Shown: positions 4,938-64,000 of the stretch, one piece after another
Position numbering within the stretch: the first letter of the stretch is position 1
Layout: each line of letters opens with the position of its first letter
From: an uncultured Christensenella sp.
Lineage (GTDB): Bacteria > Bacillota > Clostridia > Christensenellales > UBA3700
Assembly: GCA_910579785.1 (NCBI GenBank)
Contig: CAJTVJ010000003.1
Span: 3,702 to 67,701, forward strand
Length of the DNA stretch: 64,000 nt
Direction: 5' to 3'
Notes under the pieces: generated by a model
What the model was told of the DNA's origin: nothing
The model's input: only the letters and a program-made list of their open reading frames with translations
Databases searched by the model: none
Program-made: the position numbers and the translations under genes

Positions 4938-5558
4938 ATGAATAAAGCAATCATTGGAAAAAAGTTGGCAATGAGTCAAATTTTTGCTCCCGACGGCACG
5001 GTGATACCTGTCACGATAGTACAGGCTGGACCTTGCCCGGTCGTGCAAAAGAAAACCCTTGACAATGACGGATACGAAGCAATTCAAATTGCTTTCGGCG
5101 AAATCAAAGAAAGAAACGTCACTAAACCTATCAAGGGTCACTACAAGAAGGCAGGCGTTACGCCGAGAAGAGTACTTCGCGAGTTTAAGACAGACGTGGC
5201 AAGCTATGAGCTTGGACAGGAACTCAAATGCGATCAATTCGCAGTAGGATCATTGGTAGACGTAAGCGGTACTTCAAAGGGACACGGTTTCACGGGCGCA
5301 GTAAAGAGATGGAATCATCACTGCGGACCTATGGCTCACGGCTCGGGTTATCACAGAGGCGTAGGCTCTATGGGCGCTTGTTCAACTCCTTCGAGAGTAT
5401 TTAAGAACAAGAAAATGTCGGGACATTGGGGGAACGAGAAAGTTACAGTCAAAAATCTCACGGTGGCAAAAGTCGATGCCGAGCGTAATCTTCTTTTCAT
5501 CAAGGGTGCAATCCCGGGTGCAAAGGGTAACGTTGTTGTTGTGAAACAAAACGGTTAA
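4938..5558 (+). CDS. rplC: 50S ribosomal protein L3
   Basis: GHGFTGAVKRWNH motif. The ATG at 4938 gives the usual MxKAIIGKK N-terminus; the ATG at 4926 overlaps the GGAGG RBS. Confidence 0.96.
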   Translation: MNKAIIGKKLAMSQIFAPDGTVIPVTIVQAGPCPVVQKKTLDNDGYEAIQIAFGEIKERNVTKPIKGHYKKAGVTPRRVLREFKTDVASYELGQELKCDQFAVGSLVDVSGTSKGHGFTGAVKRWNHHCGPMAHGSGYHRGVGSMGACSTPSRVFKNKKMSGHWGNEKVTVKNLTVAKVDAERNLLFIKGAIPGAKGNVVVVKQNG

Positions 5559-13775: not shown

Positions 13776-15103
13776 TGTGGCAAACTATCAAAAACGCATT
13801 TAGCGACAAAAGCATCAGAAGCAAGATGTTCGCGACGTTTGGATTGCTCCTTGCGTTTAGAATAGGTTGTTGGATACCGCTTCCGGGCATTGTGCCGGAT
13901 TTTTATGCAAATCAATTCGGCGGTACGGGCGATAACAACACGATATTCCAGCTTTTGAGTATGATGAGCGGCGGCTCTATGCAATACCTGACGTTTTTCG
14001 CGCTTGGTATATTGCCGTTTATCAACAGCTTTATCATAATGCAGTTGCTCACACTTATCATTCCACCGCTTGAAAGACTTTCAAAACAAGGTGATGAGGG
14101 GCGTGAAAAAATCACAATGATCACCAGATATGTCGCAATCGTATTGGCGCTCGTACAAGCTATCGGTATCGTAGTCGCTCACAAAGAGTATATAGACCCG
14201 ATGTTTGGCGAGAAAGACGGTTGGCTGACGGCGATAATGCTCATCGCATTGCTCATAGCGGGCAGTACGATAGTAATGTGGCTTGGCGAGAGAATAACTC
14301 AGCTTGGAATAGGCAACGGAACTTCGCTGATAATTTTCAGCGGTATCCTTTCCTCTTTCGGCTTATCGCTCGTCAACACAATACCGCAGATACAGGCAGA
14401 TGCGAATAAGCTTTGGAATTTGTTTGGATATATCTTGGTAGTGTTGTTCCTCTTTGCGTTTATCGTATTCGTAGACGGCGGCGAGAGAAAAATCAAAGTC
14501 AACTACGCAAAGCAAGTCAAGGGCAACAAGATGTACGGCGGACAGTCGACGTTCATACCTATCAAGGTCAACAGCTCGGGCGTTATGCCTATCATCTTCG
14601 CGTCGTCGTTTATGACGATACCTATGATGATATTCCAATTCGTAGGACAGGATTCGCAGGCGTATATCAATTATATGACGTTCTGCTATCCGGGCAACGG
14701 CACGTCGCAATGGCAGTGGGTAGGTTGGTTGTTCTACTATCTCGTAATGTTGGTGTTGATAATCTTCTTTGCATACTTCTATGCTCAGATACAGTTCAAT
14801 CCGCAAGACGTAGCGAGAAACCTGCAACAGTACGGCGGCTCTATCCAAGGCATCAGAAGCGGAAAACCTACAAGCGAATATCTGCAAAAAATCAACAACA
14901 GAATAGTTTTATTCGGCGCGTTGTTCCTCGGCTTTATAGCCATAGTGCCTGCGGCATTGTTCCAACTTATAGGCGCAGGACTCAATTTGAATAACGCAAT
15001 ATCCTCTACGGGTATGCTCATCGCGGTAAGCGTTGCGCTCGAATTTAACAAACAGCTTGAAGGACAGCTCATGATGAAGCATTATAAGGGCTTTTTGAGG
15101 TAA
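13775..15103 (+). CDS. secY: Preprotein translocase subunit SecY
   Basis: 442 aa, 10-TM pattern, conserved position after rplO. Confidence 0.97.
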   Translation: MWQTIKNAFSDKSIRSKMFATFGLLLAFRIGCWIPLPGIVPDFYANQFGGTGDNNTIFQLLSMMSGGSMQYLTFFALGILPFINSFIIMQLLTLIIPPLERLSKQGDEGREKITMITRYVAIVLALVQAIGIVVAHKEYIDPMFGEKDGWLTAIMLIALLIAGSTIVMWLGERITQLGIGNGTSLIIFSGILSSFGLSLVNTIPQIQADANKLWNLFGYILVVLFLFAFIVFVDGGERKIKVNYAKQVKGNKMYGGQSTFIPIKVNSSGVMPIIFASSFMTIPMMIFQFVGQDSQAYINYMTFCYPGNGTSQWQWVGWLFYYLVMLVLIIFFAYFYAQIQFNPQDVARNLQQYGGSIQGIRSGKPTSEYLQKINNRIVLFGALFLGFIAIVPAALFQLIGAGLNLNNAISSTGMLIAVSVALEFNKQLEGQLMMKHYKGFLR

Positions 15104-30427: not shown

Positions 30428-30819
30428 GTCATTTCGACCGAAACGTAGTGAAGCGGAGAAATCGCATCCGCTTATTTTTCAACTTGTTGAGACCTCTCCG
30501 CTACGGTCGAGGTGACTATATAATGGTTAAAGTTAATCAAGCTATGGTCATTTCGACCGAAGCGTAAGCGTAGCGGAGAAATCTAATCAAGTTGAATAAG
30601 TACCGACAAAATGTAGCGTAAGCGTGCATTTTCGTTTGGTCGGTAAGGACGGAACCCGACTGTATGTTTAGCAATCACTTTGCTTTGCTAAGTGATTGTG
30701 TATTACAAAGTCGTGGTGAACGCCCAGGTCATTGACGCTCGCCCAAGACGCACATGCTGGCTCGCTATGCCGTCGCTTTCGCTCCTTACGACTGTAACGC
30801 AGTGGAATGGAGAAAAATC
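30428..30819. repeat. Mosaic hairpin-repeat cluster 1
   Basis: Units at 30428-30463 (fwd, ATTTC/GAAAT), 30489-30516 (rev, ACCTC/GAGGT) and 30547-30584 (fwd). A 68-nt module B sits at 30595-30662, a unique hairpin at 30669-30700, and a long-arm C-type unit at 30728-30819. Confidence 0.9.
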
Positions 30820-30938
30820 CTTTTAATATAACTCAACAAAAATCTATCAAAATATAAAATTATCAAAAGTTTTATACAACAATATTGATTGCAGCGAAAA
30901 TATATGATAAAATATAGAAAAGGATGTGTAGATATATT

Positions 30939-40512: not shown

Positions 40513-40718
40513 AGACCTCTCCGCGTTGGTCGAGGTGACTAAATATTGCTTATAGCTAATCAAGCTAAGGTCATTTCGACCGTAGTGGAGAAATCTAATC
40601 CTTTTATTTTTTAATACGTTGAGACTTCTCGACTACGCTCGAAGTGACCGGATATGGCTTATTGTCAATCAAGCTTTCGCTCCTTACGACACTGTAACGC
40701 AGTGGAATGGAAAATCTC
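40513..40718. repeat. Mosaic hairpin-repeat cluster 2
   Basis: Units at 40513-40539 (rev, ACCTC/GAGGT), 40570-40596 (fwd, ATTTC/GAAAT) and 40621-40648 (rev, ACTTC/GAAGT). A truncated C-type unit sits at 40666-40718. Confidence 0.9.
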
Positions 40719-40731
40719 GACCTTGTAAATA

Positions 40732-46020: not shown

Positions 46021-46529
46021 GTTGCAGGGTGTCGTGACTTTCTCCCAGACTTGTAGGTATATATTTAGTCGCCTCGACCGAAGCGGAGAGGTATCATCCT
46101 TTTATTTTTTTAATTCGTTGAGATTTCTCCGCTGCACTTCGTTTCGGTCGAAATGACTATATTTTTTGCTATGCTACAAACCATATCCAGTCACCTCGAC
46201 CGCAGTGGAGAGGTCTAATCGAGTTAAATAAGTACCGACAAAATGTAGCGTAAGCATGCATTTTCGTTTGGTCGGTAAGGGCGGAACCCGACTGCTAGAT
46301 TTTTAATCTGATGAGATTTCTCCACGCGTTACACTTCGGTCGAAATGACTTTACTATATATTAGTACCATTGTTACCTAGGATATGTTGCATTGGGAGAA
46401 GGCTCAAAGTTCCATATCCCCTACAATCTGCAACACTACGTAAGCTATGTCATTTCGACCGTAGCGGAGAAATCTCATCCGCTTATTTTTATTTACTTGT
46501 TGAGACCTCTCCGCGTTGGTCAAAATGAC
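46021..46529. repeat. Mosaic hairpin-repeat cluster 3 (largest)
   Basis: Units at 46068-46092 (fwd), 46120-46157 (rev), 46190-46216 (fwd), 46313-46349 (rev), 46449-46476 (fwd) and 46502-46529 (rev, hybrid arms). Module B sits at 46227-46294. Linker-family copies sit at 46021-46060 and 46388-46408. Confidence 0.9.
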
Positions 46530-46551
46530 TTAAAATATATTTGAGTCTACC

Positions 46552-63467: not shown

Positions 63468-63512
63468 CCACAATATATTGTGATATGGATTTAAAATTTA
63501 TCTATATAGTGT
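63468..63512. promoter_or_regulatory. Candidate NrdR boxes upstream of nrdD
   Basis: CACAATATATTGTG (a perfect palindrome, 63468-63481) and ATCTATATAGTGTA (63499-63512), about three helical turns apart. Confidence 0.55.
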
Positions 63513-63640
63513 ATATTTGACTGCATATCCATTGATTATAATCAACATATACATGGCTTTTATTTTTTTATGATAATTAAGGGATATGCAAGCGTATAAA
63601 TTTGACTTGGAAGAGTGTAAATGAGCATACATTGCTTACA

Positions 63641-64000
63641 GTCAATCAAGCTTTAAGTCATTTCGACCGAAGTGCAACGAAGCGGAGAAATCTCAACAAA
63701 TTAAAATAATGAAGTCACTTCGAGCGTAGTGGAGAAGTCTCAACCTTTTATTTAACTCGATTAGACCTCTCCGCGTTGGTCGAGGTGACCAAATGTGAAT
63801 CTTACAAGCTTGGGAGGAAATCGTCATTGACGCTCGCCCAAGACGCACCTGCTGGCTCGCTATGCTAGTGCTTTCGCTCCTTACGACCGAAGTGGAGAAA
63901 TCTCATCCTTTTATCTTTTAATAAGTTGAGACTTCTCGACTGTGCTCGAAGTGACCGAATATAAATCTTACTAGCATTGGAGGAAATCGTCATTGCCGCT
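63641..64000. repeat. Mosaic hairpin-repeat cluster 4 (continues past the window end)
   Basis: Units at 63657-63694 (fwd), 63714-63741 (fwd, ACTTC/GAAGT), 63763-63789 (rev) and 63928-63955 (rev). A C-type unit sits at 63823-63904 and a second C-type unit starts at 63989. Confidence 0.9.

Follow-up and report, generated by a model that had tools for sequence, protein, structure and literature searches.

Four intergenic mosaic clusters of short palindromic units lie in the window, by which we mean the whole 64,000-nt stretch of DNA analysed here; it belongs to an uncultured member of the Clostridia that is common in assemblies from the mouse gut. The orientation of the units alternates, and a few recurrent types of spacer stand between them. 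REP-type repeats are abundant in genomes, and their spread and the constraints acting on them are poorly understood. Cluster 4, which runs into the right-hand end of the window, lies between the divergent nrdD and CLC-channel genes and outside their promoter-like sites, and a promoter and terminator scan returned none inside the array; clusters 1–3 lie between other gene pairs, some of them after terminators. Upstream of nrdD there are two palindromic boxes, CACAATATATTGTG (63469–63482) and ATCTATATAGTGTA (about 63501–63514), which we take to resemble tandem NrdR operator boxes, and an AT-rich inverted repeat with 30-nt arms that are 80% complementary (63522–63551 and 63561–63590) sits between the nrdD promoter region and the array.

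A split repeat unit in the nrdD-adjacent array

Cluster 4 has three canonical units ahead of its long unit, each recognized by R1, a covariance model built exclusively from units outside Clostridia: a forward-strand unit of the TT/AA subtype with a 15-nt loop (63655–63695; 32 bits, E = 1.7e-5), a forward-strand unit of the CT/AG subtype, GTCACTTCGAGC..GGAGAAGTCTC (63712–63742; E = 4.5e-4), and a reverse-strand unit of the CC/GG subtype (63761–63791; E = 1.1e-6). These are followed, on the forward strand, by a 22-nt spacer that we term L2, here CTTACAAGCTTGGGAGGAAATC (63801–63822), of a type seen solely before long units, and by the long unit itself. The latter consists of a 6-nt head, GTCATT (63823–63828), which together with the preceding C makes a CGTC tag and whose two pyrimidines co-vary with the two purines of the right arm across copies; of a 55-nt intervening segment, hereafter S55 (63829–63883), with a GC content of 60% compared to 43.7% in the window; and of the rest of the unit, CGACCGAAGTGGAGAAATCTC (63884–63904), which reads CGACC, the loop GAAGT and GGAGAAATCTC and is matched by R1 in part, at model positions 10–22.

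Downstream, an AT-rich tail-to-tail spacer on the same strand, ATCCTTTTATCTTTTAATAAGTT (63905–63927), of a type that also occurs at 40595–40619, 46094–46121 and elsewhere, separates the long unit from its inverted partner, a reverse-strand canonical unit of the CT/AG subtype (63928–63955; R1 E = 1.4e-4), and the two are predicted to form a doublet hairpin with a z-score of −1.5. A second forward L2 spacer, CTTACTAGCATTGGAGGAAATC (63967–63988), is a direct repeat of the first at a distance of 166 nt and leads into a stub of another long unit, GTCATTGCCGCT (63989–64000, forward strand), with which the array ends. We used the MAG contig JAAWIM010000017.1 (GCA_022796355.1; L001) to read past the window edge, where one further C brings the stub to 13 nt (GTCATTGCCGCTC) before unique AT-rich DNA sets in. 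An earlier note on this DNA had taken position 63989 as the start of a further copy of S55 behind the same linker; the linker is there, but the copy amounts to this stub.

That note had described 63823–63904 as a canonical unit split after its sixth base, and this can be read directly from GTCATT, the 55 nt and CGACCGAAGTGGAGAAATCTC. Alignment with the canonical unit GTCATTTCGACCGTAGTGGAGAAATCT at 40570 places the split after base 6, with an imperfect join, as T7 of the canonical unit is gone and the last base of the segment is an A. In the window, the 55-mer has one match at up to three mismatches (0 expected) and its 3′ 17-mer three occurrences (0.02 expected). A second long unit, in cluster 1 (30728–30826, forward strand), is composed of GTCATT, S55 and CGAC..GGAGAAAAATCC; it is kept in L022–L025 and L031, and a second repeat, the X element, lies directly before it. 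The segment at 30734–30788 had been called the same 55-mer, and its position and the preceding GTCATT hold, but the two are identical at 50 of 55 positions and so are not the same. A variant unit at 40673–40722 (forward strand), identical in five other strains, has just the last 18 nt of S55 (40673–40690, noted earlier as 17 nt at 40674–40690) joined to an ordinary spacer, CAATCAAGCT.

The units are of a REP type found in many phyla

The units share the layout NGTC-A-YY-TC-GA-CC-loop-GG-AG-A-RR-T-CT, in which the nine stem positions correspond to five Watson–Crick pairs, with A–T first, two G.A mismatches and two C–G pairs. In the 5-bp outer stem, A-YY-T-C is paired with G-A-RR-T, and the second pair is T–A or C–G, not uniformly A–T. 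R1 finds 16 units in the window (E values from 4e-9 to 0.14), all 16 of them within the four clusters. Every one of the 16 carries GTC, preceded mostly by A or G in short units and by C in the L2-linked long units. Loops are made of one to three GNAGY pentamers, the commonest being GAAG, GCAG, GGAG, GAAGT and GTAGC, with expanded forms of 13–17 nt, and the units end in a CT(C/A)A tail (GGAGAAAT-CTCA or -CTAA), close to, but not identical with, the published REP tail CCA. Within the clusters of the window, both tail-to-tail and head-to-head spacer families recur.

To look beyond this lineage, we scanned one genome per species with the degenerate pattern GTCAYYTCGACC-N4-17-GGAGARRTCT. This gave at least 150 matches at at least 120 loci in many phyla, where about 15 matches would be expected by chance according to our own calculation, and they include Acidobacteria, Bacteroidota, Chloroflexi, Desulfobacterota, Nitrospirota and Verrucomicrobiota, as well as a CPR genome, a Bathyarchaeota MAG, Bifidobacterium and several cultured isolates. 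Of the 150 matches listed, 148 are complementary at both variable stem positions, compared to 80 expected, and, also among those listed, 88% of the 146 members from other taxa have a T before GTC. Inverted doublets occur in the window and in other phyla alike. That loops vary in units of GNAGY across phyla and, as described below, by 10 nt between strains suggests expansion of a slippage type.

No recurrent ORF family was found within about 4 kb of units in an all-against-all comparison of ORFs from the 120 loci listed, and the idea of an associated gene was rejected, as the comparison returned just generic ABC ATPase, kinase and TonB families. Against Rfam, the whole window was without a match at gathering score, and when clusters 1 and 4 and a doublet-rich viral contig were scanned permissively, the sole matches were miRNA and snoRNA hairpins far below threshold; literature searches with the literal unit sequence and its spurious translations were equally without result. 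Other resemblances were considered and dropped: a hammerhead-like reading of CTGATGAG at 46306 concerns a single spacer variant that has no conserved core, and likenesses to the inverted repeats of Tn402/Tn3, to SRP RNA and to the sarcin–ricin loop extend over 8–12 nt.

Two further observations concern the units themselves. Besides the genome loci (L039–L158), the unit is present on 25 viral contigs from IMG/VR (L161–L185), two of which (L172 and L184) have TGTCA...TGACA inverted doublets in which the arm and about 11 nt of flank are partly duplicated symmetrically on both sides. In the reverse-strand unit at 46501–46531, a single case, the left arm ATTTT lies opposite GAGGT, so that three pairs become G–T; such pairs would be tolerated as G.U in RNA and are weak in DNA, and the unit may be decaying.

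Taken together, the units are not specific to one species and, judged by the published description, they fit the CGTC/TGTC-tagged REP superfamily that includes dRS3 of Neisseria.

S55 occupies one fixed position within units

Complete S55 long units are present at nine loci, in ten sequence versions; in L034 the contig stops within S55, and this additional copy is left out of the ten-version set. A metagenome scan with a 20-mer from inside S55 yielded seven true copies and six high-GC chance matches, and local searches added a second, inverted copy in strain L025, one in strain L190 (cluster 3) and one in a Clostridia MAG of GTDB (L052). S55 measures 54–55 nt in each of the ten versions and lies between GTCAYY and CG(A/C)NC, running from GACGCTCG... 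(start GACGCTCGC) to ...CTCCTTA, with sharp boundaries and a conservation of 90–98%, which is above that of the neighbouring loops. The incomplete copy in L034 is consistent with this, and the segment is thus always at the same position in the unit, as the earlier note had proposed to check. Aberrant copies exist as well: in L030 two 5′ parts of S55 are fused head to head as a palindrome, and L035 has a decayed copy.

Each of the three unit subtypes has S55 copies, TT/AA (five loci), CT/AG (L028) and CC/GG (L190), and differences in the 6-nt head go together with differences in the right arm on the far side of the segment, with one head/right-arm mismatch in L036. A fixed position and halves that co-vary as TT/AA, CT/AG and CC/GG mean that the description as a unit split at a fixed position holds. 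Co-variation over a 55-nt interruption further suggests that the two arms are kept pairing at the hairpin foot, through selection or through correction of one arm to the other, and it offers a usable handle on whatever recognizes these repeats.

By the earlier note, the insertion model would fall if the segment lay mostly outside units or at variable positions, or if its boundary were gradual; none of this is the case, and none of the copies found lies outside a unit context. Among 185,579 species genomes none contains the exact 20-mer, other phyla yielded no S55, searches of viral contigs with a degenerate S55 gave chance matches alone, and cluster 4 has no match among plasmid and phage records. 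Nor did the roughly 150 loci listed contain any other kind of split unit or any other insert at that position. Within these searches, S55 is restricted to this lineage.

Long units are gained and lost in larger blocks

Spacers like L2 (ACAAGCTTGGGAGGAAATC-like, 22 nt) stand before long units or their stubs in eight cases and before a short unit in none. The long units that have no clear L2 are those of cluster 1, where the end of the X element takes its place, and of L052. Cluster 3 of L190 has a block composed of unit, X element, L2 and long unit that is paralogous to cluster 1, with 82% identity over 234 nt. The X element is a second repeat of 143 nt with two predicted hairpins and no Rfam match; it is complete at 30585–30727, represented by its first 78 nt at 46217–46294, and found elsewhere in L028 (1545–1678), L190 (about 14600–14735) and L052 (about 2225–2330). 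Its start always comes directly after a unit tail, and it often adjoins long units.

We compared these clusters between strains. At cluster 4, 10 of 11 strains have S55, and L008 lacks a block of exactly 166 nt (63813–63978) that is bounded by two direct repeats of about 35 nt, each L2 plus GTCATTG. The junction in L008 is recombinant, with the spacer of the left copy and the stub of the right one, which argues for deletion by unequal recombination and not for excision of S55. In L002–L007, modules upstream are swapped and the loop of the long unit is 10 nt longer (at 63897, GCAACGAAGC). Cluster 1 is filled in six of six sequences and cluster 2 is invariant among strains. When cluster 3 (46068–46531) is compared with L190 (14560–14880), the flanks are 99.7% (upstream) and 98.5% (downstream) identical, and about 250 nt of the array between them are replaced wholesale, with one doublet missing and a long unit where the strain of the window has none. 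In L025 (7690–8320), compared with cluster 1 (about 30570), a histidine-biosynthesis operon replaces the cdd gene on one side, the break falls within a unit, and the junction carries an additional long unit, inverted and with S55 of type B.

The differences at clusters 4, 1 and 3 thus fall between flanks that are otherwise 99% identical, and the REP arrays are hot spots of recombination that act as breakpoints between strains. S55 shows no sign of independent mobility: it is gained and lost in whole blocks only, and no orthologous pair of empty and filled S55 sites is found in 11 (cluster 4), 6 (cluster 1) and 6 further strain sequences. In related species, whose NrdD is 97% and 92% identical, there are no units in 22 kb around nrdD, so that an empty site across species is not scorable. 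S55 has no terminal inverted repeats, its ends not being complementary, and no target duplication, as its flanks GTCAYY and CGAC are unduplicated. Neither a full-length parent element nor a cognate recombinase for S55 was seen in about 0.2 Mb of this lineage, a negative that weighs little given the size of the sample. The earlier suggestion that the hairpin is itself the target of a small element therefore stands in part: the fixed position, the sharp boundaries and the precedent of insertion into REPs (PMC1525189) agree with it, but S55 shows no movement of its own and no empty or filled site, and it is linked to L2.

Apart from the arrays, L189 (about 5230–5340; about 36745 in the window) has an extra stretch of about 109 nt, unrelated to the units, at the 5′ end of an ABC-transporter gene, which appears to be a tandem duplication.

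S55 is unlikely to be a functional longer stem arm

Besides insertion, the earlier note had considered a longer left-arm allele in which CTCC pairs with GGAG. In a wider form of this idea, S55 would be a functional long left-arm allele whose 3′ end, GCTTTCGCTCC, pairs either with the GGAGAAA right arm or with GGAGGAAA of L2, giving alternative RNA or single-stranded DNA structures. The CTCC/GGAG pairing does appear in the consensus fold, and, by inspection, GGAGGAAA and TTTC(G)CTCC could make 8 bp in cluster 4. The 3′ end of S55 is moreover in register with a canonical spacer tail and left arm, at 80% (family D3), and cluster 2 has the 3′ arm of S55 without the remaining segment.

The comparison between copies speaks against it. 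CTCC/GGAG never varies, with one pair broken and uncompensated in L028, and there are no compensatory pairs inside S55 in the consensus fold; it is the distant 6-nt head, not the 3′ end of S55, that co-varies with the right arm. Pairing between L2 and S55 (CTTGGG/CCCAAG or GGAGGAAA/TTTCGCTCC) was rejected as it is not kept in other copies, being lost in L025b, L028 and L036. Folded as DNA, the long unit has a z-score of +0.77, with 152 of 200 shuffles at least as stable, and S55 as a stable structure was likewise rejected, its stability being no better than that of shuffles and covariation not being convincing. There is no Rfam match either. The long-arm allele of the earlier note is thus without support from covariation, and we regard its functional version as very unlikely.

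Origin and spread of S55

The reading that we prefer, at a probability of roughly 55%, is that S55 is a lineage-restricted variant module of one or few origins that has since been co-inherited with, and copied in, REP arrays undergoing recombination. Cluster 4 is one of four intergenic mosaic arrays of a small, imperfectly palindromic repeat of the REP kind with a CGTC or TGTC tag, and S55 interrupts the 5′ arm of some of its units where the 6-nt head gives way to the inner stem. It may have originated, once or rarely, by insertion at a specific site or by rearrangement within a unit, after which it would have been copied and inherited together with the upstream L2 in larger array blocks, by the same homologous recombination, conversion and slippage that reshuffle the arrays. 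Pairing at the hairpin foot would be kept by selection or arm-to-arm correction, and S55 itself would probably have no function. We favour this account over mobility because S55 is linked to L2 and is gained and lost solely within larger blocks.

It has its difficulties, however. A head that matches the right arm in three subtypes is most simply obtained by three independent insertions into intact units, whereas a single origin needs compensatory change on both sides of S55, with at least six substitutions. Two long units (cluster 1 and L052) have no clear L2, the boundaries are sharp and S55 is conserved above the adjacent loops, as would be expected of a young mobile sequence, and a lineage sample of about 0.2 Mb could miss rare empty sites or a parent element. 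Co-inheritance also leaves the origin of S55 unexplained; derivation from reverse-complemented loop pentamers was rejected, as the sharing of 5-mers with the loops is just marginal (p about 0.06).

These difficulties make a serious rival of repeated insertion, which is the simplest account of the matching halves even if we consider it unlikely overall. S55 would here be a tiny non-autonomous mobile element, active now or recently, or the fused ends of one, inserted again and again by a recombinase or transposase that targets REPs. The same position, length and sharp boundaries at nine loci and the presence of S55 with matching halves in three subtypes agree with this, as does a contrast between paralogues, in which the unit that comes after the X element is short in L028 and long in cluster 1. 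There are precedents in IS110 and other elements that insert into REPs (PMC1525189), in ssr9 (PMC12288879) and in phage integrating into dRS3 (PMC1797815), and as IS110-type elements have neither inverted repeats nor target duplications, their absence at S55 is not decisive. What counts against repeated insertion is that no orthologous empty site occurs among the 11 + 6 + 6 strain sequences, that the tight linkage to the 22-nt L2 is unlike insertion into arbitrary units, and that T7 of the canonical unit is lost at the junction. Neither a transposase nor a recurrent gene lies near units at the 120 loci listed, no full-length element with S55 ends and no S55 in viral contigs, plasmids or phages was found, and 55 nt is very small as a donor for known recombinases.

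In a stronger version, which we hold to be quite improbable, the REP hairpin would be a live integration site and S55 a minimal hitchhiking module or pair of fused ends, inserted independently into the three subtypes by a putative REP-targeting recombinase; head and arm would match across 55 nt because each insertion struck an intact unit. We give practically no credence to the pattern being a chance resemblance or an artefact of MAG assembly: the window does come from a MAG, repeats often break or mis-join assemblies, and many family members lie at contig ends, but 10 strains at cluster 4 and 5 at cluster 1, all assembled independently, have an identical structure, further copies come from unrelated metagenome assemblies and a GTDB MAG, and the chance expectation is about 0.

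Should S55 be mobile, it would reveal a recombination system that targets REPs in Firmicutes, and, if the live-integration reading were true, no REP-targeted insert smaller than S55 would be known, and the system would be the first of its kind in Firmicutes. To our knowledge, no enzyme that mobilizes CGTC-tagged REPs is known.

Comparison with known systems

CGTC-REPs, as described by Di Nocera et al. (2013, PMC3733652), have an unpaired CGTC tag, often TGTC or CCTC, a stem of 8–9 positions starting from A–T, a loop of 4–5 nt that is longer in some taxa, and a short tail with the consensus CCA. They occur in many intergenic copies, often as inverted dimers, without a dedicated transposase and in several phyla, with dRS3 as a member. 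Our units resemble those so described in tag, A–T-first stem, 4–5-nt loop, intergenic location and opposite orientations, in having similar members across phyla and in the absence of an associated transposase gene, and their short tail is similar to CCA but not the same; the likeness is one to the published description, and the units may belong to one of the families CGTC-1 to CGTC-4 or form a further one. They differ from what that text gives in that the base before GTC in the window is mostly A or G, with C solely before long units, in the tandem G.A mismatch of the stem and in loops that grow to 13–17 nt by GNAGY pentamers. PMC3733652 includes neither Firmicutes or Clostridia nor most of the phyla matched here, nor a conserved 55-nt segment inside a unit.

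The BIMEs of Escherichia coli and the REPIN/RAYT systems (PMC6006769, PMC3116915) similarly have alternating palindromic units with few head-side and tail-side spacer motifs, inverted doublets able to make one long hairpin and a tetranucleotide tag at the foot. BIME motifs, however, lie between units and not within them, and the tag here is NGTC, not the GTAG of REPIN/RAYT. There is no RAYT gene in the 64-kb window or the neighbouring loci, and no Y1_Tnp among Pfam matches near nrdD and clusters 1 and 2.

REPs are known as position-specific insertion targets for elements of the IS110 family and others (PMC1525189), and ssr9, a small non-coding module of ISPpu9, forms circles and occurs and inserts alone (PMC12288879). 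S55 is like these in its one fixed position in a REP and the two recognizable halves around it, and a small module acting alone is possible. Those elements, however, are far larger than 55 nt, need a cognate transposase and show insertion polymorphism, none of which was found for S55. S55 also fails as a MITE, having neither terminal inverted repeats nor a target-site duplication.

The organization of the clusters is also paralleled by the NIMEs of Neisseria (PMC1797815), in which short palindromic repeats are separated by families of AT-richer spacers and have been proposed as recombination substrates; they keep a fixed chromosomal position, vary between strains in unit number and content, and were unknown outside Neisseria in 2007, and their dRS3 is an integration site for the recombinase of filamentous phages. 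The RS elements of NIMEs separate one dRS3 copy from the next, whereas S55 interrupts a single unit, in a Clostridia host and with no recombinase known for it, and REP units split by a conserved segment in NIME-like arrays of Clostridia are not described in the REP literature surveyed. The two nonetheless share palindromic units, a limited set of spacer families and variation between strains at a fixed position, and, on the sequence matches reported here, REPs of apparent CGTC type in NIME-like, strain-variable arrays now extend to gut Clostridia and many phyla.
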